Source: a virus. Taken from it: a DNA stretch of 64,000 bases. The position numbers and the translations under genes were made by a program. Under the pieces are notes generated by a model. It was not told the DNA's origin and made no database searches. It saw only the letters and a list, made by a program, of their open reading frames with translations. The DNA lies in the IMG/VR virus record IMGVR_UViG_3300027804_000045, positions 32,001 to 96,000 of that record; one strand, written 5' to 3'. How positions within the stretch are numbered: the stretch's first letter is position 1; every line of letters starts with the position of its first letter. Below, piece after piece: positions 9,354 to 41,216 of this stretch.

Positions 9354-9360
9354 TGTGTTT

Positions 9361-9416
9361 CTCCTTCCTTACACGGATAAAAATTATATAAACATGCTAC
9401 CGTTGTGTAGCATATG
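9361..9416 (-). promoter_or_regulatory. structured 5' leader of folE (7-bp hairpin plus UCC-GUGUAA-GGA mini-hairpin at the RBS)
   Basis: ATGCTAC-acaacg-GTAGCAT directly after an ATAAATA motif; second stem overlaps AGGAAGGAG. Confidence 0.4.
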
Positions 9417-9423
9417 TATTTAT
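9417..9423 (-). promoter_or_regulatory. T4-late-type promoter ATAAATA upstream of the folE-queD-queE operon
   Basis: Same motif recurs just upstream of >10 genes. Confidence 0.6.
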
Positions 9424-9425
9424 TG

Positions 9426-24872: not shown

Positions 24873-25086
24873 AATCTTCATCTTTCATTGAAATAATAAT
24901 ATCGTGTTTGCTAGTTACTTTAATTTTAAATCCTTTACTCTCTAATAATTTAGCGATCTTACCGCGTAATACATTTGGTCTAGGGACATGCGGGTCCATT
25001 TCGATAAGTATGTTATGGATGTCTTTTTGCCAGTTATCCTGTATCCAATCAAACAACCATTTATTTTTGTCAAGGCTGACTAGCAT
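24844..25086 (-). CDS. hypothetical protein
   Basis: TAATG coupling; ends DFTFLKLKYS. Confidence 0.6.
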   Translation of the reverse strand: MLVSLDKNKWLFDWIQDNWQKDIHNILIEMDPHVPRPNVLRGKIAKLLESKGFKIKVTSKHDIIISMKDEDFTFLKLKYS

Positions 25087-25826
25087 TATTGAAATACTTG
25101 ACGATTTGCTTTTCCGTAAATCTTGATATACTTGCCAGCAAGCATATCAGCCATTGCTTCTATGGCACTGCCTGGATAACTGTCACCGTGATCAATCATG
25201 CCTAATTCAGTTTGACGCCAGTGTACGAGTTCGTGGAATACAGTACGTAGTATATCTACTAGATTGCGATTGGCTGCATATACCCAGACACTATCGCTAC
25301 CTTCAATATGGCGTCCGGTATGATGGCCTTGTTGTGCTTCTTCTGTATCGTAACTCAATTCTATCTTAGGTGGATTCTTTATCTTTAGTTTTTGTACGGC
25401 CCAATCTTTGAATTTTTCAACCTCTTTAGCTGTTTCATCCTCATCTTCACGTATAGGACGATTACTTAAATAATTTTTATAAAACCCTGTATCTAAACTT
25501 TTTGGTTTATTTGGTTTAAGTTTTTGCTTGTCTACTGTTCTTTTTATAGCCCATGCTTCTTTATCTTCTTTACCGCGCGGGACAAAGGCTGTATATTCAT
25601 AATCGTCTTTACTAGTTCCGGGGCCTTTTTTTACAGGTTTGGGGTTGAACCCTGCTTTAGGTGGTAGTTTACTACCAATGCCCTCACCACCACCGTCTCC
25701 GCCACCGGCGTCACCTTCACCACCATAGCCTCCATAATAGGCAAATCCTGGGAAGAAATAACGTCCCAACTTGGTTTTCTTTCTACGCTTCTTTTTGCGC
25801 TCTGTGATGAATTCTGTGGCTCGCAT
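25086..25826 (-). CDS. putative capsid-targeted zincin metallopeptidase
   Basis: MRATEFITE N-terminus; LRTVFHELVH..Q and GSAIEAMA third ligand. Confidence 0.75.
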   Translation of the reverse strand: MRATEFITERKKKRRKKTKLGRYFFPGFAYYGGYGGEGDAGGGDGGGEGIGSKLPPKAGFNPKPVKKGPGTSKDDYEYTAFVPRGKEDKEAWAIKRTVDKQKLKPNKPKSLDTGFYKNYLSNRPIREDEDETAKEVEKFKDWAVQKLKIKNPPKIELSYDTEEAQQGHHTGRHIEGSDSVWVYAANRNLVDILRTVFHELVHWRQTELGMIDHGDSYPGSAIEAMADMLAGKYIKIYGKANRQVFQ

Positions 25827-25831
25827 TAGAG

Positions 25832-25838
25832 TATTTAT
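25832..25838 (-). promoter_or_regulatory. late-type promoter 5 nt from ATG (leaderless)
   Basis: ATAAATA-ctcta-ATG, no RBS. Confidence 0.65.
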
Positions 25839-26005
25839 CGGGTTTTGTTGCCCACGCGCACATAAAATTTAGTTGGATTCTCTAGTGAACCTATAGCATT
25901 TGCTAGTTTTTTCGCTATATTATAGTCATAGGTGACTAATATGATACGCTCAGTATTAGTCACCATATACCTAATTGGCTGTAAAGGAAGAGCCAATGTT
26001 TGCAT
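25835..26005 (-). CDS. hypothetical protein
   Basis: TAATG-coupled small ORF MQTLALPL... Confidence 0.5.
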   Translation of the reverse strand: MQTLALPLQPIRYMVTNTERIILVTYDYNIAKKLANAIGSLENPTKFYVRVGNKTR

Positions 26006-26580
26006 TATTTTGCTAGTGGGTTTTCCCATGCTTTCTGTATCTTATCGTCTACTTTTCTTTCAAGTTCTTTTAGTTTCTGATCTGTTTCGCGTTCTATTGT
26101 ACGCAATCTTGCGTTCATGTCACGGTCTGTCACGCCCACAAATCCGCGAACTTCTTTATCAAGTTCACGATTACGTCTTTCAGCAGCATCTATGTCGGCT
26201 TGTAGACTGTCAATGTCGCCCTTTAGGTCTGTACGAACATCACGTATGATATCATTGCTTTCATCTACTAATACTACAGCATTGTCAATCTTCTGCTCTA
26301 GTTTAGTCATACGCTCTTGTATGCCACTCAAGTCTGGGGCAACATATTCTTGTATCTGTGTTTTCATGTCCATGTAGTCTTTATAGAATTCAAATGCTCC
26401 ATAAAGTCCACCTAACACTGTTGATACGATACCACCTGCGATCATCAATTTAGCAGGTGTGAAACTATAGCCACCAATACTGATGACTGTGTTTTCACTC
26501 ATGTACTGTTCTTTGGCGGCTTCTAATTCGTCTACTTTACTATCAATATCTTTATTTTCTGTTTCTTCAATTTTTGGCAT
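26005..26580 (-). CDS. single-TM coiled-coil protein ending ENPLAK
   Basis: TM IAGGIVSTVLGGLYGAF, long heptads; AGGAG RBS. Confidence 0.8.
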   Translation of the reverse strand: MPKIEETENKDIDSKVDELEAAKEQYMSENTVISIGGYSFTPAKLMIAGGIVSTVLGGLYGAFEFYKDYMDMKTQIQEYVAPDLSGIQERMTKLEQKIDNAVVLVDESNDIIRDVRTDLKGDIDSLQADIDAAERRNRELDKEVRGFVGVTDRDMNARLRTIERETDQKLKELERKVDDKIQKAWENPLAK

Positions 26581-26590
26581 TTTATATCTC

Positions 26591-26788
26591 CTAATCCCAA
26601 TAGCCTGTTTTAGTTTCTTCACGCCAGGCTTCTAATCTTGTGCGTATACTACTCGGGCTTGTTGGTACACCTAAATAGTTCATCACAACATAATTTTTAT
26701 ACTTTTTATATTCAGCTTGTTCTTCTTTAGTCATATCTTTAAATTCTTTAGATAATAAATATCCCATTCGTGTGTTTGTAGGTATCAT
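26591..26788 (-). CDS. hypothetical protein
   Basis: ATGA-coupled small ORF. Confidence 0.5.
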   Translation of the reverse strand: MIPTNTRMGYLLSKEFKDMTKEEQAEYKKYKNYVVMNYLGVPTSPSSIRTRLEAWREETKTGYWD

Positions 26789-28857
26789 TTATATTGCTCC
26801 TCAACCATTTGCTTGTAAGTGTCAGTATTGCCTTTCTCTAGGAAATACATACCACGTTTGTTATCGTCATACTTTACATTCTTGTAGATATCTTCTGGCT
26901 TGTACCATATATTGTTGTCATTCAACATAGCACTACGATAACTTGATACATCAGTATCACCACTCATAGCAGCGACGATACCTGATTGATCTGCATCCAT
27001 ATAGTTCTTGTTGATCTCATCTTGTTGTTCTTTGTTGGCAGCAACTACTTCTTCTGCTCTTTTCTCTGCGTCACTCTTTTCGTCTTTGTTATTACCGAGT
27101 ACGCCCAGTATTTCAAGATTAGTAGTGTTTGGTACAACATTGAAAGCGTTTGCGAGATTTGGATCATTTTGTATTGTTACCTTTTCATCTTCTTCAAAAG
27201 CACTAACACTTGTATCTTCTGATTTTTGTTCTGTCTGTGCTAAAACATTTTGTACAAACTCAACATCATCAGTTGAAGTATCAGTTGGCTTGATATCTAT
27301 GTTCATGATATCAGTAAAACTATCAATAGTATCTACTGAACCATCAACACTTTGTTCTATGTTATTTGCTACAACTTCTTCAACAACTGTTTCAACTTTA
27401 TTTTCTTCGGTCATTATCTCAAAATCACTACTATCATTATCAGCAACACTATTATCAATGACATTATCTATAGTGATATTCTCAATAATACTATCATTTG
27501 ATTTAGTTTCACCACTTGCCATAGCTATACTTTCAGCCTGGCTTATGCTATCACTTGCGCTTTGTTCTGTTTGTGATTGTGTCTGAGCCATGCTAACATT
27601 GTTTAGTTGACGACCTGTCTCAAGTAGATCATTGGCACTGTCAATACTATTATCTGCTACAGTTTCATCGTTATCAATTTTATCTTGTTCTTTGGTTTCA
27701 ACTTCGTCATCAACAGTTGATATGTTTGTTCTTGCTGTAGTAGTTGATAATGTTTCTGTAGTTGCTACATTATTACTTGCGGCTGCTTCTGCTACGCTCA
27801 ATGCCAATTCAAGTGTATTTTTACTAATGCTATCGGCAAGTATCTGTGCTTTTTCTTCGTCTGTCAATTCACGATAAGTGACTTCTTTTTCATTAGTTTC
27901 TGCTGGTGTTTCTTCAACAGTAGTTTCTTCGTCTTGTAATAGTTCTTCTAACTCTGTCTCATCAATAGTTTCATCTGCTACAAATACCTCTTCTTCCTCA
28001 TCAGCAATGACTTCTGTGCCATCATCGCTGCCATCATCACTACCTGTGTTATCGTCATCAATAGCAGTTTCATCCGCTAACATCTCTGCTACTTCTTCTG
28101 GATCACTATAGTCTATGATACCATCATCATATAGGTCAAGTGTATTGATAATACAACTTGGGTCATATGGATTCAATGTACAGTCAACACCTATCACTGG
28201 ATCGGGTGCTTCAAGATAACCTATACGAAAATTCACACGGTCTATTGCTGGGCCATAATATCCACCCCAAAAACCTTCATCACGACCATAGAAACTTATG
28301 ATAGCAGATGTGAACAAGAACTCTGATTGTTGTGAACTATACCATCCAACTGCCTTGTAATCGAGTCCGTTCACACCAGGATCACCTGCTTTGAAATAAT
28401 CTGGACCTATAGGTATGAAGTTGAATGAGCCCGCTTCACCCTGTTCTGTGAAAAACTGTACGCTGGCACCAAACAAATCTCTTGGACCATCTGGGTTTTC
28501 GCAATAACCACCTATGCTGTTGTTACAGTTCATTCTATAGAAGAAGTCAAAATAGAATTCAAAACTATTTGTGTTATATTGGCTCAAATCTATATTAGTG
28601 GCTAATGTTGCACCCATATAAGAAAATTGAAAACATTGCCCTTGATTGCTCAATCCACCACATCCGGGTCGTATCGCACCACCACTAAAGTTATCGCCCT
28701 GCAATGTCCAATTGTTTGGTGTAGTACCTATTGGACCATCAAAACTAAAGTCAGGCACAAGATTACCTGTCTGTGTGGCACCAGCATAGGGGCTGACTTC
28801 TTGGGCCATTGCTGGCCCAAATAGTAATAGTGCTAACAATGCCAGTAGTTTTTTCAT
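26785..28857 (-). CDS. secreted protein with lectin-like N-domain and long acidic stalk
   Basis: Signal peptide MKKLLALL..AMA, DEGFWGGYYGPAID, CTLNPYDPSC, D/E-rich region. Confidence 0.75.
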   Translation of the reverse strand: MKKLLALLALLLFGPAMAQEVSPYAGATQTGNLVPDFSFDGPIGTTPNNWTLQGDNFSGGAIRPGCGGLSNQGQCFQFSYMGATLATNIDLSQYNTNSFEFYFDFFYRMNCNNSIGGYCENPDGPRDLFGASVQFFTEQGEAGSFNFIPIGPDYFKAGDPGVNGLDYKAVGWYSSQQSEFLFTSAIISFYGRDEGFWGGYYGPAIDRVNFRIGYLEAPDPVIGVDCTLNPYDPSCIINTLDLYDDGIIDYSDPEEVAEMLADETAIDDDNTGSDDGSDDGTEVIADEEEEVFVADETIDETELEELLQDEETTVEETPAETNEKEVTYRELTDEEKAQILADSISKNTLELALSVAEAAASNNVATTETLSTTTARTNISTVDDEVETKEQDKIDNDETVADNSIDSANDLLETGRQLNNVSMAQTQSQTEQSASDSISQAESIAMASGETKSNDSIIENITIDNVIDNSVADNDSSDFEIMTEENKVETVVEEVVANNIEQSVDGSVDTIDSFTDIMNIDIKPTDTSTDDVEFVQNVLAQTEQKSEDTSVSAFEEDEKVTIQNDPNLANAFNVVPNTTNLEILGVLGNNKDEKSDAEKRAEEVVAANKEQQDEINKNYMDADQSGIVAAMSGDTDVSSYRSAMLNDNNIWYKPEDIYKNVKYDDNKRGMYFLEKGNTDTYKQMVEEQYK

Positions 28858-30248
28858 CCTACTGGATCTGCCTCTGGCATATCTTCAGTCTTTTCAGCCT
28901 TGCTTTCGTCATTGTCACCAAAGATACTACGGAACCAGCCTTTCTTCTGATCTGGGCGTTCTGTCTTATTCTCAGACCATTGATCGGTTGCCTCTTTACC
29001 AATCTTGCCCATATATGGGCAAGGTGTACCTGCCATTTCCATAGCCTTGAATACACGCTCATCTTGGCACATCAATGACACTGCTGCGACTTTCATGCCC
29101 ATATCATATAATGTCTTTGATAACTTCAAGCGTTCGCAGTTCATATCACGCACAGCCTTACCTGCGCTCATACCAATAACTTGTGTCTGTACCGCACCAC
29201 TGATACCACTCACGCAAACATCTTGGCTATAAGTGCTGATCATTGGGGCTATGGCACTTGCCGGTGGAGCCTTGATCTCTTGCTCTACCTTTGTGATGTT
29301 CTCATTGCGATTGATGTTTGTATTAGTATTTTCTGTCTTTACATTGCTTTGGCTAGTGCTTTCGCTCTTGTTTACATTCTCGTTTTTGTTCACAGCAGTG
29401 CTTGTGCTAACATTCACATTGTTATTATTGTTGGTAGCAGTACTCACATTCTCGTTTTTATTCAAGTTTGTGTTAGTGCTGGTACTGACATTATTGTTAT
29501 TGTTAGTATTGACGCTGGTGCTGTTATTCGTGTTGACATTATTTGAGTTGATGTTGGTGTTGTTATTATTGTTATTATTATAAGTAACCTCACCGCTCAT
29601 GTTATTGTTGTTATTATTTGTGTTTGTGCTTGTAGATGTGTTGATATTGTTATTGGTATTGTTGCTTGTGGTCGTGTTCACATTGTTGTTATTATTAGTA
29701 ACCGTACCGCTCTGTATATTCAAGTTTGTATTTGTGTTTGTATTATTGTTTGTGTTTGTGTTACTGCTTGTAGTCGTATTGACATTATTGTTATTGTTAG
29801 TCAATGTACCACTTTGGATATTGTTATTTGTGTTGACATTATTGTTAGTGCTATTCACAGTGCTTGTGTTCACATTTGTATTTGTGTTAGTACTGGTCGT
29901 AGCATTATTATTGTTATAAGTCACAGTACCACTCATGACATTGTTGTTAGTGTTGGTATTTGTGCTTGTAGTCGTATTCGTGTTTATATTCGTGTTGGTG
30001 TTATCACTAGTACTTGTTGAAGTATTAGTGTTTGTATTTTGATTGACATTGGTAGCAGTACCACTTTGAATATTATAGTTTGTATTAGTATTCGTATTAG
30101 TGTTATCTGTGGTACTTGTAGTATTGCTTGTTGTTGTGACATTGCTTGTAGTATCTACAGTTGAAACCGTAGTTGTCTGTGCCATGGCCACGGTGATCAT
30201 GCCAGTACTAAGCACTGCCAATAGCAAAAGCTTATCGGATCTAAACAT
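28854..30248 (-). CDS. secreted Asn/Thr-repeat protein with Cys-rich C-terminal domain
   Basis: Signal peptide, ~300 aa N/T repeats, PPASAIAP...DVC...NCERLKL...MCQD...GTPCP. Confidence 0.8.
   Translation of the reverse strand: MFRSDKLLLLAVLSTGMITVAMAQTTTVSTVDTTSNVTTTSNTTSTTDNTNTNTNTNYNIQSGTATNVNQNTNTNTSTSTSDNTNTNINTNTTTSTNTNTNNNVMSGTVTYNNNNATTSTNTNTNVNTSTVNSTNNNVNTNNNIQSGTLTNNNNNVNTTTSSNTNTNNNTNTNTNLNIQSGTVTNNNNNVNTTTSNNTNNNINTSTSTNTNNNNNNMSGEVTYNNNNNNNTNINSNNVNTNNSTSVNTNNNNNVSTSTNTNLNKNENVSTATNNNNNVNVSTSTAVNKNENVNKSESTSQSNVKTENTNTNINRNENITKVEQEIKAPPASAIAPMISTYSQDVCVSGISGAVQTQVIGMSAGKAVRDMNCERLKLSKTLYDMGMKVAAVSLMCQDERVFKAMEMAGTPCPYMGKIGKEATDQWSENKTERPDQKKGWFRSIFGDNDESKAEKTEDMPEADPVG
29300..30170 (-). 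repeat. Asn/Thr low-complexity repeat punctuated by N(I/M)(Q)SG(T/E)xT motifs
   Basis: NIQSGTATN, VMSGTVTYN, NIQSGTLTN, NIQSGTVTN, NMSGEVTYN. Confidence 0.85.
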
Positions 30249-30350
30249 ATATTTTATTCCATATGCCTTCCCCCAAACGCCCCATGCTTTAGGTTCTGGC
30301 TACTTGCTATCCCTATTATTTTTATTTTAGGATAGACTTTTGTATAGTAT

Positions 30351-30357
30351 TATTTAT
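30351..30357 (-). promoter_or_regulatory. late-type promoter for the three-gene envelope module
   Basis: ATAAATA ~100 nt upstream of ATG. Confidence 0.5.
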
Positions 30358-30378
30358 GAGATATCGGTCAAAAATATA

Positions 30379-30552
30379 TCAGTATTTGTTTAGTTTATGC
30401 TTGAGTGCGCTGAACAATTCTGGATCAAGTGTTTTCAGATCCTGCACCCATTGTTCTAGATCAATCTGATGTAATGCTCTGCGAATATCTGCTGCTTCGC
30501 GGTCATAGATATCTAAATCATCCCATTCATGTTCAGGTTTACTGTACAACAT
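30379..30552 (-). CDS. hypothetical protein, 57 aa (not in ORF track)
   Basis: MLYSKPEHEWDDLDIYDRE...KLNKY*; GGAG RBS. Confidence 0.65.
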   Translation of the reverse strand: MLYSKPEHEWDDLDIYDREAADIRRALHQIDLEQWVQDLKTLDPELFSALKHKLNKY

Positions 30553-30611
30553 ATGCTATTACTCCGAACAAAATTATGAGTGCCATAATTATATATACGA
30601 ATGTTCTAAAT

Positions 30612-30842
30612 CTAACCGTGACTCGGAAAAGTTCCATCAAGTACTAGCCTATGTTGTAGTTGACCTTCATTGAAGATATGTAGCATGCCTGGAAATTGTT
30701 CGAACTCAAAAACATATCTTACATCGCCGCGTGTTGTGACAGCGATACCTACAATGATCCCATCTGCTTCATAAGTGCCGCCGGTCTTGCGAACATAGTC
30801 GCCTTCACGAAATTTCAATTCTGGTAAATCAATAGTTGTCAT
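30612..30842 (-). CDS. small SH3/KOW-like hypothetical protein
   Basis: KFREGDYVRKTGGTY...RYVFE...LHIFNE.QL. Confidence 0.7.
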   Translation of the reverse strand: MTTIDLPELKFREGDYVRKTGGTYEADGIIVGIAVTTRGDVRYVFEFEQFPGMLHIFNEGQLQHRLVLDGTFPSHG

Positions 30843-31057
30843 ACGTAATCCTTTAGTCCAAAATGTGCGCGAATCTTGTCACCATAATCCTTATAAGGAT
30901 AACTGCTGTTACTATCTGCCACAGTAGCGCATTCTTCTACGATTGCTTCAGCAAAACGCTGTAGTGTATCAGGATTTACTTCCGGGTAGAAACTGCCCCC
31001 GGTGTTGAGGGCGATTTCATAAACTTTTTTAGTGAGTTGTTTAGGTTTGTGATTCAT
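30839..31057 (-). CDS. hypothetical protein
   Basis: LQRFAEAIVEECA...IRAHFG; own promoter. Confidence 0.75.
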   Translation of the reverse strand: MNHKPKQLTKKVYEIALNTGGSFYPEVNPDTLQRFAEAIVEECATVADSNSSYPYKDYGDKIRAHFGLKDYV

Positions 31058-31063
31058 ATATTG

Positions 31064-31092
31064 ATTATATAATCACAAAACTCTTATGTCAA
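31064..31092 (-). promoter_or_regulatory. consensus sigma70 promoter, leaderless
   Basis: TTGACA-17-TATAAT-6nt-ATG. Confidence 0.85.
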
Positions 31093-31096
31093 TATT

Positions 31097-31240
31097 TTAT
31101 TTGAAAAAGGGTAAAAAAGCCTTGACCTTATCTAAATGTTTTTGTAAATGTTTTTCTTGAAAGTTTTTTGCGAATTGTGGTTGTGGGAAATTCCAACCAA
31201 TAAATGCACCGACTAGTATCCAAAATAGTGTTTCTAACAT
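31097..31240 (-). CDS. small membrane protein, 47 aa (not in ORF track)
   Basis: MLETLFWILVGAFIGWNFPQP...; AGGAG RBS. Confidence 0.75.
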   Translation of the reverse strand: MLETLFWILVGAFIGWNFPQPQFAKNFQEKHLQKHLDKVKAFLPFFK

Positions 31241-31251
31241 GGTTTTTCTCC

Positions 31252-31722
31252 TTAGTTACACCAACTTTGCTTCTTTTCACCAAAGTAAGCACGGGCGTAA
31301 CCATTTTTGATCAATAGTTCTGATAACTTCTGACCATCTAGGTATACATCGCCCAATACACGACCACCAAACTTATCATGGTCTTTGATTTCAAATTGTA
31401 TGACTTTTGCTTTTGCTACAGCATCTTTAGTGAATGCGCTAGCCTTTTGTGCTAATGCATCTTCGCTAGGACATTGGGCGCGACCGCCCTTCTCTGGTGT
31501 ATCAACACCCAATACACGCAATGATAATACTGGCTTTAGACCTAGATACTGTTGCATGAATGGTGCTTCAAACTGTATAGTATCACCGTCGCTTACTTTG
31601 ACAACTTTATATGAATATAATTGCTGACTGAAGATTTTTGGGCTATAAAATGCTACTGGAAGACCTATTAGTAATCCTACTAAAATATGTTTAGCATAAT
31701 AGTTTATTTTACTTGTCATCAT
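31252..31722 (-). CDS. thermonuclease (SNase-like), membrane-anchored or secreted
   Basis: VSDGDT, RVLGVDTPE, DKFGGRVLG, LIKNGYA; N-terminal hydrophobic stretch. Confidence 0.9.
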   Translation of the reverse strand: MMTSKINYYAKHILVGLLIGLPVAFYSPKIFSQQLYSYKVVKVSDGDTIQFEAPFMQQYLGLKPVLSLRVLGVDTPEKGGRAQCPSEDALAQKASAFTKDAVAKAKVIQFEIKDHDKFGGRVLGDVYLDGQKLSELLIKNGYARAYFGEKKQSWCN

Positions 31723-32095
31723 AATCTCCAGCAAATCCGCTCATATAACGACTGCCCTTGATCTTTCCTAATTCTGGCTTTTTGAATTCTTGCTTTAGTG
31801 AAGCCATGAAGCCCTCTAGGCTGTTGCTTGCTTGATTTTGCAATGATTCTTTATCGGATGGATTTAGACCCATATACTTTTTGACAAAAGCAGCAATCTG
31901 ATCCATTGACAACTTAGCCTTCTTACCATCTTTGAATAGTATAGGATAGTTGCCATCAACATCGATTGCCTTACGCAACTGCATCAGGATATGAGGAACT
32001 TTATCAGCATCTGGATCTTCTGGCTTATCCACAACATCGTCAAGATCATCTGATCTTGCAAGTTTCTTTGCTTCGATAACTTCAAAAATCTTCAT
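31709..32095 (-). CDS. putative capsid-targeted hypothetical protein
   Basis: MKIFEVIEA start; HILMQLRKAID...I.FKDG. Confidence 0.75.
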   Translation of the reverse strand: MKIFEVIEAKKLARSDDLDDVVDKPEDPDADKVPHILMQLRKAIDVDGNYPILFKDGKKAKLSMDQIAAFVKKYMGLNPSDKESLQNQASNSLEGFMASLKQEFKKPELGKIKGSRYMSGFAGDYDDK

Positions 32096-32120
32096 AAAAA
32101 TGTTCCTCAATCTATGTATA

Positions 32121-32127
32121 TATTTAT
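32121..32127 (-). promoter_or_regulatory. late-type promoter
   Basis: ATAAATA then GAGG RBS. Confidence 0.6.
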
Positions 32128-32858
32128 GCCCAAGGATCGGTAATGACTAATGTGCCATCACTACGTCTCATTACGTTTTCAGTATGAGGATCCCAACCAT
32201 ACCCTTTGCTATTTCCTACTTTATGTAATTTACGCAAGGTGTTGTAGAATATCTCATATTCTTTCAACTTGCTAGTATTTTGGGCAACAAACTCTTTCTG
32301 TAGTTTTTTAGCATTTGGGTACATGCCCTCGCCCGAATCTTTACTTATTATGTCTACGACTTTCGCCCAATCTAATTGCTTTGCTGAAAGATCGGCTAAC
32401 ATCCAAACTACGTATTCGTCTAATGAGCCCTTTTCTAATGGGTATAATTGTTCCATACCATACTGAACAAACGGTTGATCATTTATAGTGAAGTTATAAA
32501 CTTCACGACCATCTACTTGTTTGAATTGTGGCAAATTAGGTGCATTTAGTTTTTTGCTCAATTGATAAAACATTCTGAATGTTTCATGGGCAGTATTATC
32601 TTCTTTAGGCATGAGTATCTTGACTACAGTACCTTCATCTTTCATCCATACTTGCGCATCATAGCCGCTGCCTATAAACTTATACCCTGCTGCTTTCAAT
32701 TTGTTTTTTACAAATTTACTTAGATCCTCATCTTCATTTGTTTTCTTCTTACGACCTTGACAATGGGCGCGTTGACTAAAGCCTTTAGGATTATTACAAT
32801 TGATACTGCGCTTATATTTTTGTGACCACTTTTCTGATATGAATTCTTTACTGCGCAT
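32124..32858 (-). CDS. putative capsid-targeted protein-kinase-like enzyme
   Basis: MRSKEFISE; IGSGYDAQVW, VVKI, MEQL, DPHTENVM, ITDP. Confidence 0.75.
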   Translation of the reverse strand: MRSKEFISEKWSQKYKRSINCNNPKGFSQRAHCQGRKKKTNEDEDLSKFVKNKLKAAGYKFIGSGYDAQVWMKDEGTVVKILMPKEDNTAHETFRMFYQLSKKLNAPNLPQFKQVDGREVYNFTINDQPFVQYGMEQLYPLEKGSLDEYVVWMLADLSAKQLDWAKVVDIISKDSGEGMYPNAKKLQKEFVAQNTSKLKEYEIFYNTLRKLHKVGNSKGYGWDPHTENVMRRSDGTLVITDPWA

Positions 32859-33430
32859 TATTTTCTACCGATCTTCATATAGCGAGTATAATCAGTTTCC
32901 GGATCTTGTAATTCTTTTTTACCTAGATAATTTACAACAGTCATAGGAAACATATCGTCAAACTGTTTCATATCAGCAACTTTAGTTTTGCTCCCGCTCA
33001 CGCTATCACGACCCTGTACTACAACAGGCATACCTTCTGGTACAACATCATACCAATCTGTACTCATGTCATTAATGCTTGTGTTGATTACAATGCCTGG
33101 CTTATCGTATATTACATCTTTAGCATCGGTATGTAAAAATATTAATTGACCGTCGTTGAATAATGGTCTTAATAAACGTTCGCTTGTTTTTAATACACTA
33201 TCGTTAATATCTATCAATACGATATGATCAAAGACGATGCCGGCTTTCTGTAGGATATATGCTAGATTGCCATACCAGCTACCTAATACATAGATAGTTC
33301 TCGCGCATTTATTACCTAGACCTTCCTTAACTTTATTTGCCAGCCATTGTTTGCTAGTCACTAGATCGTCAGTTAAACTACCTTCTAGTGTATTTGGGCT
33401 GGCCTCGTTAGTAAGATCACGTATGCGCAT
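32858..33430 (-). CDS. putative capsid-targeted class I SAM-methyltransferase-like protein
   Basis: MRIRDLTNE; SKQWL, VLGSWYG, LIDIN, INTS, RYMKIG. Confidence 0.65.
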   Translation of the reverse strand: MRIRDLTNEASPNTLEGSLTDDLVTSKQWLANKVKEGLGNKCARTIYVLGSWYGNLAYILQKAGIVFDHIVLIDINDSVLKTSERLLRPLFNDGQLIFLHTDAKDVIYDKPGIVINTSINDMSTDWYDVVPEGMPVVVQGRDSVSGSKTKVADMKQFDDMFPMTVVNYLGKKELQDPETDYTRYMKIGRK

Positions 33431-33434
33431 TTCA

Positions 33435-33875
33435 TTATTGTCTATCTTTCTTAAGAACGCTCTTGATCATCCAATTATGTTTTGCATGTGCGTCTAATCT
33501 TTCAGCAAGATAATTCTCAATGCCTCTTTGATTTTCTTTGCCTGCTACAACAAAGCATTCTTGTAATAGACCTAATAATAATTCATTATCGCTCTGTAAT
33601 TCAGCGAACATGAGTTCGGCGCGTGGTACCATAGTTTGATCAGGAAGTATTGATAATTCTTTATAACGCTCAAAACTGCCGGGTGTATAACTATCTAATG
33701 TGCGGATGTACTCTGCTGTCTTATCTAAGCTAGCATATACTTCAGCGTATAGATCGCCGAAAAATTCATGGTATTGGGGAAAGTTTGGTCCTTCAACATT
33801 CCAATGAAAATACTGTGCCTTGATGACGAAGGCATATGAACTTGCTAATAATACTTTTAATTTATCTGCTAACAT
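33435..33875 (-). CDS. dps: DNA protection during starvation ferritin-like protein
   Basis: FHWNVEGPNFPQYH.FF..LY, D..AE.IR, H.K..WM. Confidence 0.93.
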   Translation of the reverse strand: MLADKLKVLLASSYAFVIKAQYFHWNVEGPNFPQYHEFFGDLYAEVYASLDKTAEYIRTLDSYTPGSFERYKELSILPDQTMVPRAELMFAELQSDNELLLGLLQECFVVAGKENQRGIENYLAERLDAHAKHNWMIKSVLKKDRQ

Positions 33876-33876
33876 A

Positions 33877-33996
33877 TTAATTCGCCTGTATGAAATCTTC
33901 TAGCAACTTTCTTGCTTCACGAAAATTCTGTGCTGTGCATTCAAATACTTTGACTTGACCGCTTTTGCATAAAACTTCAAACTTATAATTTTTCAT
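33877..33996 (-). CDS. hypothetical protein, 39 aa
   Basis: MKNYKFEVLCKSGQVK...FIQAN*; GAGG RBS. Confidence 0.55.
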   Translation of the reverse strand: MKNYKFEVLCKSGQVKVFECTAQNFREARKLLEDFIQAN

Positions 33997-34007
33997 TTTT
34001 TATTCCT

Positions 34008-34190
34008 CTACAGACCATTAATTAAATATTTTTTAAAATGATCCTCATCCTTTTTTTTACAAATTTCATCGCTCACTTTTGTTTTCCAAATTTCTGGAAA
34101 TATTCCATGTACTAATAATATCAATGCCCAACGCCATGCTCTAATCAAATGTTTAAAGTAACCTATATTATTGTCACTTAGATGTGTCAA
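34008..34190 (-). CDS. DUF6356-like small protein
   Basis: HL....GYFKHL..A....L.LLVHGIFP. Confidence 0.65.
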   Translation of the reverse strand: MTHLSDNNIGYFKHLIRAWRWALILLVHGIFPEIWKTKVSDEICKKKDEDHFKKYLINGL

Positions 34191-34192
34191 GA

Positions 34193-37100
34193 TTAGCGTC
34201 CTTTAATTCCTTTTAATATTGAACTTTCTTTTGTTTTTTGTGGCTGAAGTTGTTGCATTCTCTTTTGTACTTCCGCATCAAGTTTAGGACGATCACGTTC
34301 TAAATAATGTCCCGGAACTTCTACTGGTTCTTCAGGCTGACTGATATCATAGGGTGCTGATTTAGGCGCCCCCGGCTTTTTATATACAGCATTCGGGTTT
34401 GGTACAGGTTTATCCTGTTTGTTCTTATCAGCATTCCTATCTAAAAATTTTTGTAATATTTCCATCTCATTCACCTGTGCTATTATATTATTTGTAGGAA
34501 CATCCGGGAAGTAATGTTTCATACCTTCTTTACCGTGTTCTTGTCTTACCATCAATCTTTGAATACTATCTAAATCTTTTGCACTGATTTTGCTGTCAGG
34601 ATCTAGTCCTAACTCACCAAAAGTATTTTTAATATATGTGTTTGTATCGTTGTTGTCTACTGGCGGGGCATACTTGTGAATCAACTGTCTGCCTGTCAAT
34701 CCTCTCTTTAATGCATCCAATGCTAACTGTCTGCGCATTGCTTCTTTGCCATCTTCGGGATTAGCAAATATAGCGAAACCATTTTTATCAAAGCCTACTG
34801 CTTTATCTAATACGTATCCTGGTCTACGTAGTGCGTCTGTACCGCGCAAATTGCCAGGATTATTTCTTGGATCTACAAAAGTACTGCCTGAGCTTCTACC
34901 ACTATCTGGATATCTGTTGCTAATTTTAGGTTCTACTTTTGGTATAGAAGCGACTGGTGCAACAGGCGCAATAATTGGTTCAGACTGTGTTGGTCTATTA
35001 TATATTATATCACTTAGCGTATCACCTTTTTGTACAACATAAGTATCGCCGGAAGGTAGTCTGATCTTTTGTCCTATATAAATTAAGTTAGGATCTTTAA
35101 TTTTATTTGCTGCTGCTATTTGTTTTATCAAATTTGCGTCATATTCTTTGACCGGCACTTTAGGTTCTATGGCTTTTACTTTAGCATAGTGATCCATTGC
35201 TGTGCCAGGTTTAGCAACTTTTCCAGCAGCAACTTTCCAACCCGGAGGTGCTGTTTGCTTAGTGATTGGATTTATTTTTGCAGGTTCTGGTCTGCCGCCT
35301 CTTACTGCTGCTGATGCCTTATCTAAAAATGCATTGATAGTTTTAGGACTTAATTCATTAACCTTCTCTGCTTTACCTTTTTTAGCATCCTGTTTAAATT
35401 GCAATCTAGTTGCGCGATTTATTCCGCTAAAACGCTTGTTGCCTTTTTGAAAGTCGCCTTCTTTATCAGCAGCACTTGCTTCTGTACCTGCCTTCTTTTT
35501 ATAACTTGCTAGAGTTTCAGGACTCAATTCATTTATCATCTCATCTTCAGGAGTCATAAGTGTAGTCTTAGATGTTTTTGCAGGTTGAGATGGTCTTTGA
35601 ATCTGATATTGGTTTTTAGGATCCGCGAACCAGGCACGTTGAATACTACTATCGGTTGGATCTTTGGCAGTTTCATCCCCTGCAAAATATTTACGCATAG
35701 TAGCGATACGTTTTGTTCCGCCTTTAATTGCGCTAGAAATACCTTCATCCATCTCATCTGGTTTAAGTTTAATCTTGCGATATGCTTGACCCATGCCACC
35801 TGGTGTATTGATTGTTTCTTCTATTTCAGGGGGCATCCATTTTTGATATTGTCCTGCTTTAGGCATATCGTCAAATGATGGAAGTGTTTGATCCCATGTT
35901 TTGTATTGGCCTGGCTTCATATCAGGACTCGCGGCTTGTCTAGATGTTTGAGCAGCAGGTTTTTTAACACCTATATCTTTATAATCAATATTATATTTGC
36001 GCATCAATGCGTTCATCTGTCTCTGTTGTATATCCATATCAACAGGATCTCCGCCGCGCATAATTGATTTAAACAATTGTGCTACTGTGTTTACCGCGCC
36101 TAGACGGCCGCCTGCTTCATCAAGTTCTTCGCCTAATCCAAAGCCGCCAACTGCACCTGCGCTATAACCTTCTTTGATACCTCGACCTATTGAACTTGTT
36201 GGTTTATAATTTTTAAAGTAATCTTTTACTGCTTGAGGATTGTCATAGGCAGCAAGTGCTGCTTCCGCACCTAATGACGCTGCTTGTGCTCCGAAATGGG
36301 GTACAAGGCCGGTAGTAGTAGCGACACCTCTTAATGCTGCACCAGCGTAATCTTTATTGCCTAAACGTTTTTGAAAATCTTTATAATCATCCTGTACAGT
36401 TAATAAAGTTGCTGCAGGTAAAACTCCCTTACCTATTGTTTTTGCTGCTTTCTTAATTGCGCCTGATGAAGGTTGAGGAACAGCAACAGCATCAGTATTT
36501 TCAAATGGCATTTCAGGTTGTGAATATTCAATCTTTCTTGGTCTTTGAGGTATTGCTACGTCAGTTGATCTGTTTCTATCGATAGGACCATTTGGTTCTG
36601 ACGTATCAGCACCTGGTGCACCTAATATATCAGAATCTTGCTCATCAGGTACAGCGACCGGAGGAGGAGTCATGATTGATGTGTCGCTAGATGGAGGTGC
36701 TGTTGTTATATCTACTGTATCTTTATCAGGCGAAGGCGGCGGAGGATTGTTGCTTGCGCTTGATGTAGGACCGCCACCGGATGGTGGAGGGGGAGGGGGA
36801 GGTGGAGCGGATGATGTCTGTGCGGGAGCAGTTGTTTTATCTCTTGGATCTGTACCTTTGACTAGCCCTGCCGCAGCGCCGCCGACAACACCTAATGCTG
36901 CTAATGCTGCTTTAACCTTTTTCGGTACAAGTGGAGATTTTGCGACATCATCAGCCCATTTACTGTTATCAGGAAGATTTTTCCACCAGCGCATGTCTGG
37001 TTCATAACCCTTTTTACCTATCTGTGCTCCTAAACTTTGTGGAGGTGCTGCAGGTGCCGCAGCAACAGATGGTGTCCTTGTAGTTTTAGGTTTTGTCGTT

Positions 37101-37750
37101 TTAGGTGTATCCGTACGTACAGGTTCCAATGCACCTGTCTGTGGATTTACTCTTGCTCTTGGTTTATCTGTAACAGGTTTATCTGTTGCTTGTGCAGCTT
37201 TTGCTGCTGCTCTTTGTTCGCGCTTACGTATAGCGTCAGGAGTTTGACTTAACTGACGACCTGACGTTTTTTCAGGTTGTGCTGCTTGTTGAGCTGGTTG
37301 ATTAGTGCCTTTTAATTTATCAATACCAAACGCTTGATCAACCTTTTGTCTAAATTCTGGATCATCAATATATTTTTGTATTTGATCACCTAAAATTGCG
37401 CCTAATGGTCCGCCGGCAAGTCCTCCAGCAATTTTACCTTTCCAACGCGCTTCTTCTAATTGTCCTTGCATTGCTAGGAAATCTTCATACATTTTAGTAG
37501 CTAGATTAACAAGATCGCTTGTATCAATTTCGGGATAGTTTGTTTTGATATTATTTTGATTTGCAGCTAACCATTTTGTTGCCTGACCTATCCATTCTTC
37601 AGCAGACAAATCAAAGTCTTGAACCATTGGTGTCATGATATAACGCTTTAATAGCATTTTTTCAGCAGCACTACCTTTTGGATTTTGACGTACAATATTT
37701 TGTATTTGGCGTGACGCTGCTTTATCTAAACCTTCAAAAATTTTACTCAT
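34193..37750 (-). CDS. large modular virion (head/ejection) polyprotein with permuted LysM and muramidase-like domain
   Basis: Repeated (L/V/I)xE junctions, ELSPxT repeats, DPNLIYIGQ/VQKGDTLS, RNNPGNLR...KYAP. Confidence 0.75.
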   Translation of the reverse strand: MSKIFEGLDKAASRQIQNIVRQNPKGSAAEKMLLKRYIMTPMVQDFDLSAEEWIGQATKWLAANQNNIKTNYPEIDTSDLVNLATKMYEDFLAMQGQLEEARWKGKIAGGLAGGPLGAILGDQIQKYIDDPEFRQKVDQAFGIDKLKGTNQPAQQAAQPEKTSGRQLSQTPDAIRKREQRAAAKAAQATDKPVTDKPRARVNPQTGALEPVRTDTPKTTKPKTTRTPSVAAAPAAPPQSLGAQIGKKGYEPDMRWWKNLPDNSKWADDVAKSPLVPKKVKAALAALGVVGGAAAGLVKGTDPRDKTTAPAQTSSAPPPPPPPPSGGGPTSSASNNPPPPSPDKDTVDITTAPPSSDTSIMTPPPVAVPDEQDSDILGAPGADTSEPNGPIDRNRSTDVAIPQRPRKIEYSQPEMPFENTDAVAVPQPSSGAIKKAAKTIGKGVLPAATLLTVQDDYKDFQKRLGNKDYAGAALRGVATTTGLVPHFGAQAASLGAEAALAAYDNPQAVKDYFKNYKPTSSIGRGIKEGYSAGAVGGFGLGEELDEAGGRLGAVNTVAQLFKSIMRGGDPVDMDIQQRQMNALMRKYNIDYKDIGVKKPAAQTSRQAASPDMKPGQYKTWDQTLPSFDDMPKAGQYQKWMPPEIEETINTPGGMGQAYRKIKLKPDEMDEGISSAIKGGTKRIATMRKYFAGDETAKDPTDSSIQRAWFADPKNQYQIQRPSQPAKTSKTTLMTPEDEMINELSPETLASYKKKAGTEASAADKEGDFQKGNKRFSGINRATRLQFKQDAKKGKAEKVNELSPKTINAFLDKASAAVRGGRPEPAKINPITKQTAPPGWKVAAGKVAKPGTAMDHYAKVKAIEPKVPVKEYDANLIKQIAAANKIKDPNLIYIGQKIRLPSGDTYVVQKGDTLSDIIYNRPTQSEPIIAPVAPVASIPKVEPKISNRYPDSGRSSGSTFVDPRNNPGNLRGTDALRRPGYVLDKAVGFDKNGFAIFANPEDGKEAMRRQLALDALKRGLTGRQLIHKYAPPVDNNDTNTYIKNTFGELGLDPDSKISAKDLDSIQRLMVRQEHGKEGMKHYFPDVPTNNIIAQVNEMEILQKFLDRNADKNKQDKPVPNPNAVYKKPGAPKSAPYDISQPEEPVEVPGHYLERDRPKLDAEVQKRMQQLQPQKTKESSILKGIKGR

Positions 37751-38112
37751 TTGCTATCTCTCTTACTTTTTGTAGCAACATTCTTTGCTTTGCCACTACG
37801 TTCTGGATTAGGATCTTCTCTGCGCTTACGTGCTGCTGCGCTGGCGCGACCTTTTTTTCCTAGACTATGTGCTTTGCTCTGTGGTAAGCACTTAGGCTTA
37901 CCCTCGCTATTACTACCTCTAGCACATGCTCCGCGAATCTTTCCATCTGGTCCAAAACGAACCCACTTCTCTTTGAACCACTTGCGTAAATCTTCTTCTA
38001 ATTCTTGTTCAGATACTTTAACACAATTTGGAACCATACGACCACCTTTAGGCTTCATGCCTTTCTGTGTGTATCCTTTCCAACATGCTTCTAGTATCTG
38101 GCGATATCTCAT
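37747..38112 (-). CDS. putative capsid-targeted basic two-module protein
   Basis: MRYRQILEA; CWKGY...VPNCVK and EDLRKWFKEKWV...PKCLP modules. Confidence 0.75.
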   Translation of the reverse strand: MRYRQILEACWKGYTQKGMKPKGGRMVPNCVKVSEQELEEDLRKWFKEKWVRFGPDGKIRGACARGSNSEGKPKCLPQSKAHSLGKKGRASAAARKRREDPNPERSGKAKNVATKSKRDSK

Positions 38113-39515
38113 TTTTTGCTCTTGTTGCCCCAGTTCTTTGCGCCTTTCTTACGGCATTTAACTAACGCACCGCTAGCATATGCTGATGGCCATACTTTGT
38201 AGCGGCTCTTGACTTTATGATAGCAAGCATCTTTGGCTTCAGCGATACTTTCTTCACTGTAAGAAGGTCCGCCGCACTCGACACATCTTTCTTCCTTAAC
38301 ATCTATATTATCAGTTGGACTACGTGAATAACTAAATTCTTTGCCCTTATTCCAATCTTTTTGCCTCATAGTGCTGACAGCTTTTTCTGCTGCTTGTAGA
38401 GTATTAAATGTGTATGGTTCTTTGTTTTTATCTTTTACAATTTTTCCATTTATGCGAACATACCAAGGACCTTGATTATATTTTCTTGCGCGTTCCTCTT
38501 CACCGGCTAATTCTGCATCCATTTCTCTTCTTTTGAAATCTCTTCTTTCTTGATCCATCGCCGATTGTTCACGGCGTTCATAGTCAAGTGGATTATAAGG
38601 TCTTGATTCTTCAAAATTGCTCATGCCACCTGCCAACACTCCAGCACTTTCTTTTTGTATTTTGTCTGATGCCGCTTTACCTGCCGCACCAGCTCCGGCT
38701 GCTGCACCTACTTTTGTTGCTGTCTTGATATTCTTGACGTTTTGATTAGTTTGATTTGCTATAGCGCGTTGTACTTCTACTGTTTTAGGTAAATCTCCTA
38801 TTTGTTTTTTTGCCGCTGCATGTGCTAGTTTACCTACAACATTTGCTAAACCTTCCGCAGCGTAATCATGTTCTAAACTATCGGCTACGCTGTTTAGATA
38901 GTCAGAAGCTAATGTGATGTATGATTGCTGCCAGCCCATCAAGCCTTCATCTTCTGTGCGGTTTTCTATCATCTTATAGATACGCATAGCGTCTTTAGCA
39001 GCAGCATATAAATCACTACGCGCCATCTCTACTTCATGGTCACGGCGATCTGCCTTATGCGGAATGAAACTTGTATCTTTCATACGGCGCATGCCTGGGA
39101 CTACGATTAAATCATCTTCCTTTAATTCATCTTCCTTAATAGGCTCGTCTAATTGTTTAGCAGCATTTTTATCTGTGTACCCAGTATCGTGCCATGCTTT
39201 AGAACCTGTTTTAGTGCTAGGTGCTGGTTTAGGTGCAGATGTTGGTTTGGGCGCAGCCGCTGTATTTGATTTAGTAAAAAATTCTTTAGTTTTATTATAT
39301 ACTTTTTGAAATTCGTCAGCATCCATATGCTTAAGGTTATAGGCAAGTGCCTTCATAGCACCTTCGCTGATTTGATTAGCGAACTTCTTTTTATTCTTTT
39401 TAACAGGCGGACTTTTAGGTGGTTTTTCAACCCTTGTTTCAATTTCACCTAGTGGTTTCGCTACTGTTGCGATAGAACCTGCGACAGTACTTTCAAAAAT
39501 ATCATTAACTTTCAT
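38109..39515 (-). CDS. modular virion polyprotein
   Basis: MKVNDIFES; DHEVEMARSDL module; KDACYHKVKSRYKVWPSAYASG (DUF5872-like) module. Confidence 0.75.
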   Translation of the reverse strand: MKVNDIFESTVAGSIATVAKPLGEIETRVEKPPKSPPVKKNKKKFANQISEGAMKALAYNLKHMDADEFQKVYNKTKEFFTKSNTAAAPKPTSAPKPAPSTKTGSKAWHDTGYTDKNAAKQLDEPIKEDELKEDDLIVVPGMRRMKDTSFIPHKADRRDHEVEMARSDLYAAAKDAMRIYKMIENRTEDEGLMGWQQSYITLASDYLNSVADSLEHDYAAEGLANVVGKLAHAAAKKQIGDLPKTVEVQRAIANQTNQNVKNIKTATKVGAAAGAGAAGKAASDKIQKESAGVLAGGMSNFEESRPYNPLDYERREQSAMDQERRDFKRREMDAELAGEEERARKYNQGPWYVRINGKIVKDKNKEPYTFNTLQAAEKAVSTMRQKDWNKGKEFSYSRSPTDNIDVKEERCVECGGPSYSEESIAEAKDACYHKVKSRYKVWPSAYASGALVKCRKKGAKNWGNKSKK

Positions 39516-39538: not shown

Positions 39539-39545
39539 TATTTAT
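39539..39545 (-). promoter_or_regulatory. late-type promoter
   Basis: GATAAATAC just after the upstream terminator. Confidence 0.65.
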
Positions 39546-40520: not shown

Positions 40521-41216
40521 TTATTTTTCTGGTAGATAATCTAGGCTTTCTGTTTTAGGCTTTTTACCAGCTTTTTTCATATTGATTGCTGTAGCAGCTT
40601 GTTGCGCTGGATTTGCCGCCTCATCAACTGTTTCTGTGCCCATGCCTGCGTCCAGTAATTTTACAACGTTAGTTGCTAATTTAGGATTACTCTGAGTAGC
40701 AGGATACAAACTCATAACCATTGCTGTTTTTTGTCGCATATTTAAAGTAGGCCAGTTGTCTCTAATTTCTGTCGCACTTTTAATTCCTGGACCAAAAGTT
40801 ATGGTTGGTAAATATGTGATATATGCTTGTTTTCCGTAAGGTTTTACATTTTTTCCAGTATAAGGTTGAAAGTAACTAGGTGTGCCATCTTTTTTTGTTC
40901 CACCTGGTTTAGGTTCTTCTAACCTATCTTTTTCGCTGCGCACAAAAATAAGTACATCTTCATTAGGATTGAAATGATCAGTGATTTCTTTTGGTCTAAA
41001 AGGACTTTTTACCTGTATAAAATGACTAGGATCTACACCGGCAACTCTTGCCAGTTTCTCTTTAATATTAAATGGAAACGGTCTTTCTTTTTGATCGTTA
41101 GTCGCAGCTACAAACACTTCAGCATCTGGAAATTGTTCTTTTGCGGCCTGGTAAAGGCTGTAATGCCCTGCATGAAAAGGATGAAAACCACCTGGCATTA
41201 CAACAATCTGTTTCAT
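40521..41216 (-). CDS. HIGH-family nucleotidyltransferase with appended basic peptide
   Basis: PGGFHPFHAGH, SATEIR; tail VDE-AANPAQQAA.AI.MKKAGKKPK. Confidence 0.75.
   Translation of the reverse strand: MKQIVVMPGGFHPFHAGHYSLYQAAKEQFPDAEVFVAATNDQKERPFPFNIKEKLARVAGVDPSHFIQVKSPFRPKEITDHFNPNEDVLIFVRSEKDRLEEPKPGGTKKDGTPSYFQPYTGKNVKPYGKQAYITYLPTITFGPGIKSATEIRDNWPTLNMRQKTAMVMSLYPATQSNPKLATNVVKLLDAGMGTETVDEAANPAQQAATAINMKKAGKKPKTESLDYLPEK

Follow-up and report, generated by a model that had tools for sequence, protein, structure and literature searches.

A nine-residue N-terminal tag resembling the capsid-targeting sequence of phage T4 on unrelated proteins of an uncultured freshwater jumbo phage

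The DNA considered here (the window) is a stretch of 64,000 nucleotides, corresponding to bases 32001-96000 of a 150,743-bp IMG/VR viral contig (IMGVR_UViG_3300027804_000045). In the interval 25086-39515 of the window several unrelated proteins begin with similar short peptides, and the original prediction, made from the sequence itself, was that these peptides are variants of the capsid-targeting sequence (CTS) of phage T4 and that the proteins behind them are packaged into the virion and injected. All seven N-termini quoted in that prediction were found as described, on the minus strand. The seven genes are listed below; positions refer to the window unless the contig is named.

25086-25826, minus strand: putative cargo gene 1, 246 amino acids (aa); MRATEFITE tag, basic Gly-rich disordered linker and C-terminal minimal zincin domain (HELVH ... 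IEAMAD)
31709-32095, minus strand: putative cargo gene 2, 128 aa, acidic; MKIFEVIEA, starting at the first ATG within a TTG-extended open reading frame (ORF)
32124-32858, minus strand: putative cargo gene 3, 244 aa; MRSKEFISE tag, 35-aa basic two-Cys KWSQKYK module and protein-kinase-like domain
32858-33430, minus strand: putative cargo gene 4 (p190), 190 aa; MRIRDLTNE tag and possible Rossmann class I methyltransferase-like domain
34193-37750, minus strand: mostly disordered protein of 1185 aa starting with MSKIFEG; LysM at residues 875-899 and a predicted Enc34-endolysin-like domain at about 960-1110
37747-38112, minus strand: putative cargo gene 5, 121 aa; MRYRQILEA and small basic Cys modules (CWKGY...PNCV; WVRFGPDGKIRG...KCLPQSKA)
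38109-39515, minus strand: putative cargo gene 6, 468 aa; MKVNDIFES, long low-complexity region and C-terminal basic Cys module (YKVWPSAYASGALVKCRKKG)

The tag was defined by the strict nine-residue pattern M-[KR]-x-x-[DE]-[FILVM]-[FILVMT]-x-E, and its position weight matrix (residue scores for each position) reads M1, R/K2, A3, x4, E/D5, F6, I/L/V7, T/S/N8, E9. The likeness to the T4 CTS proposed for all seven N-termini is seen in six of them. MRATEFITE, MRSKEFISE and MRIRDLTNE are in strict register (p ~1e-5 each by the matrix), and in MKIFEVIEA, MRYRQILEA and MKVNDIFES the Glu comes one residue early. Orthologues of the latter three show the same variant or the canonical tag: the starts are MKIFEVIEA, MKIQDILLE, MKIQEILFE and MKSEDFLIE for gene 2 (which also occurs fused behind MRYLEFITE), MRFREILES, MRHRQLLEA and MRFREITEA for gene 5, and MKINQITES, MKIKDIYES and MKINQIISE for gene 6. 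Gene 4 orthologues begin with MRIRDLTNE, MNIRDLTE or MKFTEFLLE. Ends of the L/I-x-E type are found in six of the seven genes (ITE, ISE, LTNE, which is weak, VIE, ILE and IFE). The seventh N-terminus, MSKIFEG, represents a separate family, MSKI[LF]xG, in which the Glu (E6) is not conserved and is replaced by Gln, Lys or Ser. This N-terminus, typical of the LysM/lysozyme-like family (P0001-P0014), may be a second, distinct address or assembly signal.

The interval as a whole can be called a cargo array only in part: next to the six tag-like genes it holds at least six untagged ones, encoding Dps-like and SNase-like proteins, two signal-peptide proteins, a membrane coiled-coil protein and small ORFs, and more tag-like genes lie outside it. 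The closest match to T4, MKSLKQYIAE, is in register and belongs to a gene at contig position 97026-97658, just beyond the end of the window, as is the 5' end of a 1676-aa gene starting with MEFKKFLQIVNEAE; two other tag-like starts, MDIRKILDIVTEAE and MRDLLDTITVLSE, lie upstream of the window.

The source of this DNA is an uncultured freshwater (lake) jumbo myovirus, distantly T4-like. The 1191-aa tail sheath encoded by the contig is ~45% identical to the sheaths of the jumbo myoviruses PA5oct, Atu_ph07 and Phosso, and 94 of the 201 contig proteins are shared, mostly at ~30-70% identity, with a complete relative (G001, 354,959 bp with terminal repeats); the contig thus represents part of a jumbo phage of ~350 kb that is distantly T4-like. 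Its completeness according to CheckV is 43%, and 177 of its 205 genes are placed on the minus strand. No match was found by megablast of 10 kb against cultured phages, and tblastn with the zincin protein returned weak cyanophage matches only.

Within this contig alone the tag statistics are modest. The motif [DEQ]-hydrophobic-hydrophobic-x-E appears in the first 12 residues of 7 of the 201 genes against 1.8 expected (Poisson p 0.003), and the strict tag in 3 of the 201 against 0.04 expected (p 1e-5). A looser definition, hydrophobic-hydrophobic-x-E, was dropped, as it showed no enrichment in the contig (13 observed, 10 expected). Across related contigs the signal is overwhelming. These relatives were collected by searching viral contigs with kinase-like plus zincin-like proteins, which yielded 117 loci and 1848 unique proteins. 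The strict tag stands at the start of 87 of the 1848, whereas 0.37 would be expected from internal positions, and about 49 of the 87 are left once both seed families are taken out. The KWSQKYK module drew in many of the loci, and 67 of the 87 tagged proteins lack it, which rules out the tag being a part of that module. When similarity confined to the tag or the module is disregarded, the 84 tagged proteins with an ATG start fall into 29 homology groups, with Pfam matches to GNAT, Zeta_toxin/AAA_33, Sigma70_r4, GH19, Phage_lysozyme2 (phage tail lysozyme) and LysM; the occurrence of the tag on unrelated proteins, as originally proposed, is thus well founded. A DNA-level search, independent of gene calls, gave 25 matches in five related genomes and 2 for a reversed-pattern control. 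These counts bear directly on the suspicion that the resemblance arose by chance or by paralogy among a few genes. Such an origin might be read from the three strict genes and the unenriched loose motif of this contig, and the genes of Salicola phage SCTP-2 that have a common N-terminus may be paralogues, but the excess of tagged proteins, their 29 unrelated groups with diverse domains and the DNA-level matches all contradict it, and we regard it as the least probable of the explanations considered.

Two loci outside the contig deserve a separate description. In a related 76-kb contig (L009:5129-18791) a 1753-aa polyvalent protein, composed of a zincin and a kinase, is followed by nine consecutive genes, most of them tagged (MRANEFLNE, MRANEFLIE, MRSNEFLIE, MKSHEFITE twice, MRATEFLCE, MRSSEFITE and MKLFEFLSE), making this array denser than that of the window. 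In SCTP-2 (L152, 208780-213412) genes 213, 216, 217 and 218, all annotated as hypothetical, begin with MK[IV]ND[IL]L-x-E and are situated ~2.5 kb from the large terminase gene.

The behaviour of the tag relative to the rest of the protein was followed in the families of the array. In the zincin family alignment a conserved tag (M1, R2, E5, F6) is followed by a hypervariable linker of 0 to ~130 aa, predicted to be disordered, and then by a nearly invariant 112-aa domain. Proteins of the relatives contain the kinase, zincin, 190-aa and 128-aa domains singly or in fusions, in a wide variety of architectures, and nearly all of these open with the tag.

According to the original prediction, the genes are all located downstream of ATAAATA promoters. 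This is true only at the level of the operon. Directly upstream, the element was found for three of the seven genes, the other four being internal to a gap-free minus-strand operon running from 39515 to 31252. The three elements are:

25832-25838, minus strand: ATAAATA resembling a late promoter, situated 5 nt before the start codon of the zincin gene; a Shine-Dalgarno sequence is absent, as in leaderless genes
32121-32127, minus strand: ATAAATA, 25 nt before the start of gene 2; a Shine-Dalgarno sequence (AGGA) follows
39539-39545, minus strand: ATAAATA, 23 nt before the start of gene 6; the operon from 39515 to 31252 is probably transcribed from it

ATAAATA is rarer in the window than expected (18 copies versus 31), and 14 of the 18 copies are on the coding strand. 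The shorter core TAAATA lies within 60 nt upstream of 36 of the 201 genes, tail and baseplate genes among them, and precedes 8 of the 12 tag-like genes as compared with 28 of the 189 others (Fisher p 1.5e-4). The enrichment of the motif among late genes, which had been put forward as a check of the packaging proposal, was thus observed as far as it can be read from the promoter motif: the tag is enriched on genes behind a T4-like late promoter core, which is consistent with late expression.

In approximately eleven genes the distance from TAAATA to the ATG is only 10-13 nt and a Shine-Dalgarno sequence is missing (e.g. CTAAATACTNNNN-ATG); such short-spaced sites are present at 25827-25838 of the window and, outside it, at contig positions 6514-6526, 98167-98176, 109035-109045, 144776-144786 and 146346-146356. 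If the start of transcription is placed as in T4 late promoters, little or no leader would be left on their mRNAs. In other late genes TAAATA is placed at -24 to -32 and is accompanied by a Shine-Dalgarno sequence.

The occurrence of this geometry in some tagged genes raises the question of whether the common 5' end is a feature of the nucleic acid, i.e. a late or leaderless start context or a boundary for the recombinational swapping of cassettes. The promoter and CTS-coding sequences that flank the internal-protein loci of T-even phages are conserved, and have been proposed as recombination sites. However, tags are found both with and without a Shine-Dalgarno sequence, and the codons of the conserved residues vary freely: Phe is encoded by TTT 36 times and by TTC 29 times, Arg2 by five codons, and Glu by GAA and GAG at genome-typical ratios. 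As this variation is synonymous, selection acts at the level of the peptide. An explanation of the tag at the mRNA level was rejected on this ground, and a nucleic-acid origin in general appears very improbable.

The peptide itself is close to the head tags of T4. In the T4 genome (NC_000866) both IPII and IPIII begin with MKTYQEFIAE, IPI with MKTFKEF...ITE and gp24 with MAKINELLRE; gp22, gp21 and gp67 begin with MLKEQLIAE, MNEPQLLIE and MEGLIE, respectively. The core E-F-I-x-E and the terminal Glu are common to the tag and to IPII/IPIII, the tag being one residue shorter. The known cleavage site of gp21 lies behind L/I-x-E, and an N-terminal stretch of 10 residues from IPIII is enough to direct packaging; within the CTS, the important positions are 4 and 7 for targeting and 8 and 10 for processing (PMC9026906, PMC5694885). 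The description of the T4 system given in the original prediction, with MKTYQEFIAE as the CTS and a gp21 cut after Glu, agrees with both the T4 genome record and the L/I-x-E motif (PMC9026906).

A candidate protease for such a tag is encoded by the relatives. Peptidase_S77 (gp21-type) was detected in all three large tag-bearing relatives, two of which are 97-100% complete, and in one of five smaller related fragments (29-52% complete). The protease of G001 (236195-236833) has 212 aa, like T4 gp21, to which it is 37% identical, and retains the GE-x-(D/N)HP and GVSSRG motifs that contain the His and Ser residues. The head module of this phage follows the T4 order: portal, two small core-like proteins, protease, scaffold and capsid protein. 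The capsid protein carries four L/I-x-E sites in its first 41 residues (propeptide), and a 303-aa core-like protein begins with MNKYEKLIE. In PA5oct, gp333 (start MKINDIITE), whose gene adjoins the portal gene, is annotated as a virion protein detected by electrospray tandem mass spectrometry (ESI-MS/MS), which offers an indirect link, by analogy, to a virion location of the tagged proteins.

A somewhat different role was also considered. The tag might be a signal for association with, and cleavage in, the prohead core, and the tagged proteins might be assembly-time factors that are degraded or expelled during maturation in the manner of T4 gp22, gp67 and gp68, and so never reach the host. The scaffold and core proteins of T4 have similar N-termini (MLKEQLIAE, MEGLIE), PA5oct gp333 and the 55-aa and 303-aa proteins of G001 are core-like and encoded beside the portal gene, and several tagged proteins are acidic, disordered and devoid of a recognisable domain. 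Against this, many others are host-takeover or wall-breaching enzymes (kinase, GNAT, zeta-like kinase, sigma region 4 protein, lysozymes) that have no obvious role in assembly and are paralleled by T4 Alt and the internal proteins, as well as by injected polyvalent proteins (PMC5512222). We therefore consider a purely assembly-related function unlikely.

As the tag is enriched, independent of the domain behind it and T4-like, and a gp21-type protease is encoded by the relatives, we favour its interpretation as a propeptide of the T4 capsid-targeting type, marking proteins for packaging into the head. By analogy with T4 this is probable; the binding, cleavage, retention in the head and injection that it entails are inferred. 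The tag peptide would bind the scaffolding core of the assembling prohead, so that the protein behind it becomes enclosed. A prohead protease of the gp21 family, encoded off this contig, would then cut after the Glu of I/L-x-E, and the mature cargo would remain in the head together with the DNA and would probably be ejected into the host. The cargo would consist of a minimal zincin, a gp0.7-like kinase, a methyltransferase-like enzyme, small basic two-Cys modules and two proteins without an assigned function. Its genes are arranged in putatively late operons behind TAAATA, and in the relatives the same domains are either separately tagged or fused into giant polyvalent proteins.

Several observations weigh against this interpretation. 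In the present contig, which is 43% complete, no Peptidase_S77, scaffold, portal or capsid gene and no counterpart of the G001 head module was found, and the link to gp21 rests on relatives that are ~50-60% identical. Just three genes of the contig conform to the strict consensus, and MSKIFEG is wholly outside it. One zincin subgroup lacks the Glu at position 9 (MRSQEFMNT), and the residue following the Glu is often Arg, Lys or Tyr, whereas T4 has a small residue there. In the cultured relatives PA5oct, Atu_ph07, Phosso and SCTP-2 the enrichment is weak (3-7 pattern matches versus 0-3 in controls), and a single one of these matches, in PA5oct, is a virion protein. Finally, ClpP is encoded by both near-complete relatives and co-occurs with the tag as consistently as gp21 does. 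Since both proteins are present in these two genomes, the phyletic pattern cannot tell gp21 from ClpP as the partner of the tag.

This last point is connected with another explanation, in which the peptide is read by a different phage machine, e.g. phage ClpX/ClpP, and serves in the timing or relocation of these proteins, either as a degron or as a handle for an unfoldase. The contig does encode ClpP (contig positions 4325-4924) and a ClpX-like protein with a CSFCG zinc-finger start (9280-10488), both outside the window, and ClpP adjoins tagged genes here as well as in G001 (26671-27261). A role in protein translocation during virion assembly has been speculated for ClpX of group 2.2 jumbo phages (PMC7824862). 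However, nearly every residue of the tag agrees with the T4 head tag, its terminal motif is the one cut by gp21, and T4, the model for the tag, needs no ClpXP. The tag is not known to resemble the N-terminal recognition motifs of ClpX. In our opinion a Clp-read signal is quite improbable.

The identities originally proposed for the zincin, the kinase, the methyltransferase-like enzyme and the wall hydrolase were upheld at the fold or family level, and the inclusion of the hydrolase among the tagged cargo is not supported, as the 1185-aa protein has no canonical tag. The C-terminal domain of the gene 1 protein is, at the fold level and as modelled, a minimal zincin. The model has a predicted local distance difference test (pLDDT) score of 75-95 at residues 130-246, where a helix, a three-stranded sheet, the HExxH helix and the Glu helix follow each other, a topology that is the same as that described for the MPTase domains of polyvalent proteins (PMC5512222). 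Residues H198, E199, H202 and E223 are invariant in the family alignment. Structure searches gave Z 8.7 to SPRTN, Wss1 and a YbeY-like protein, with nearly all of the top 50 rows being zincins (zinc metallopeptidase fold), and Foldseek matched abylysin and IrrE; the match to Tox-MPTase3 (E 0.002) is under the family threshold.

The gene 3 product is, judged by its sequence, a protein-kinase-like protein of the T7 gp0.7 type. It has no Pfam match and aligns over residues 48-242 with phrog_15752 (T7 gp0.7-type kinase, E 1.2e-9), and it contains a Gly-rich loop (IGSGYDAQVW), a VxK lysine (VVKIL), a DxxxxN catalytic loop (DPHTEN) and a metal-binding Asp (ITDPW). Its first 45 aa recur at the starts of proteins of many lengths in ~70 viral contigs. 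They include the 35-aa basic two-Cys module KWSQKYK..C..PKGFSQ.AHC.GRKK (32726-32830; also in related loci L006-L122), which belongs to no Pfam family. In 45 of 45 distinct contexts, 26 of them internal or C-terminal, the module is preceded by [ILVM]-x-E, which would be either a conserved protease site that frees the module or a part of the module fold.

For gene 4, the assignment as class I methyltransferase-like is only a lead: the protein scored 0.98 in the Atlas to viral clusters, one of them auto-named class I SAM-dependent methyltransferase, and its match to a NanM-type sugar O-methyltransferase (E 0.006) is under the threshold. The 1185-aa protein is predicted to combine, at the fold level, an Enc34-type endolysin catalytic domain (Foldseek to 7q47: E 2.4e-4, probability 1.0, the next match being far behind) with a LysM cell-wall-binding module (E 9e-8), and one of its homologues also bears Sigma70_r4. 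The gene 5 protein matched phrog_727, 23735 and 9737, and that of gene 2 had no Pfam or PHROG match. In sequence searches of Pfam, NCBIfam and PDB nothing significant was obtained for the zincin, 128-aa, 121-aa, 468-aa or methyltransferase-like proteins.

The untagged genes of the operon include the following:

33435-33875, minus strand: Dps/ferritin-like DNA-binding protein, inside the array
31252-31722, minus strand: staphylococcal-nuclease-like protein whose N-terminus is hydrophobic; the operon ends with this gene

An unlisted 39-codon ORF (MKNYKFEVLCKSG...) on the minus strand at 33884-34003 fills a seeming gap upstream of the Dps-like gene, so that there is no intergenic space at this point. 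The region 26785-30248 encodes two large untagged proteins with signal-peptide-like starts, one of 690 aa and very acidic, the other of 464 aa and made mostly of Asn/Thr-rich repeats. A 136-aa plus-strand ORF (37751-38161) overlaps the 121-aa gene 5; it is favoured by a longest-ORF caller, and homologues back the minus-strand gene. Beyond the interval, a cytidylyltransferase-like protein (40521-41216) is untagged, and its homologues in the relatives begin with MLIFEMFE or MYIFEMFE, some having the KWSQKYK module or the 190-aa methyltransferase-like domain as a fusion partner.

The mechanism suggested here, a capsid targeting sequence, is already known from T4, and for this phage group a literature search found no earlier description of CTS-type tags. 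The lineage itself stands apart from T4: it is that of a jumbo phage of ~350 kb whose family-C polymerase is split, and it is far removed from the Straboviridae. The T4 CTS is likewise a short N-terminal peptide borne by unrelated proteins (IPI, IPII, IPIII and Alt) and removed by gp21 (Mullaney and Black 1996, as reviewed in PMC9026906 and PMC3012670). The two also have in common the E-F-I-x-E core, the Glu end in L/I-x-E and late genes behind a TATAAATA-like promoter core, and the relatives of this phage possess a gp21 homologue and a T4-order head module. On the other hand, the present tag has 9 residues instead of 10, favours Arg at position 2 and is often followed by a basic or aromatic residue after the cut. 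The tagged set, known here from genes alone, is also far broader, comprising at least 29 families in the relatives (kinases, zincins, GNATs, sigma region 4 and lysozymes among them).

The domain repertoire, in turn, is that of the polyvalent proteins of phages and conjugative elements, built around zincin-like MPTase hubs (Iyer et al. 2017, PMC5512222), with minimal zincin, kinase, methyltransferase-like, lysozyme, GNAT and nucleotidyltransferase domains in common. For both, a role in countering the host or taking it over, after delivery together with the DNA, has been proposed. In the window, however, the zincin (246 aa), the kinase (244 aa) and the methyltransferase-like protein (190 aa) are encoded by individually tagged genes, and not as the single giant polypeptide that defines polyvalent proteins, and their loading would use a CTS and a scaffold rather than a MuF-type or portal-linked domain. 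As the relatives fuse the zincin and the kinase of the window into single proteins of 1243-1876 aa, the array resembles a polyvalent protein split into separately tagged genes.

A third comparison concerns the inner-body and ejection proteins of phages phiKZ, 201phi2-1 and SPN3US, processed by gp175/gp245 (PMC5694885). These are also jumbo phages that pack many proteins into the head, and their propeptides are cut after Glu by a distant relative of gp21, as is proposed here. They differ in that the propeptides are mostly 80-130 residues long with the motif S/A-x-E, no short common tag is known and the phages belong to the nucleus-forming group 1.

A wider proposal, to which we would give even chances, is that a clade of ~350-kb freshwater jumbo phages loads dozens of interchangeable proteins into the capsid by one nine-residue address tag. 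This cargo would comprise kinases, zincins, GNATs, zeta-like kinases, a sigma region 4 protein, lysozymes and small basic two-Cys DNA-binding modules. As parts of the same evenly balanced proposal, the arrays would be polyvalent effectors dismantled into tagged genes, and the internal [ILVM]-x-E sites before KWSQKYK would release the modules in the head.

Provided that the tag functions as it does in T4, the injected proteins of a jumbo phage could be predicted from its genome sequence alone, also in uncultured phages, which account for a large part of lake and gut viromes. The tag would provide a short list of candidate host-takeover or anti-defence effectors, represented here by the kinase, the zincin, the methyltransferase-like enzyme and the small DNA-binding modules, as well as a natural means by which large capsids could be loaded with foreign proteins. 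Two known ideas, that of the T4 CTS and that of polyvalent injected proteins, would thereby be joined.

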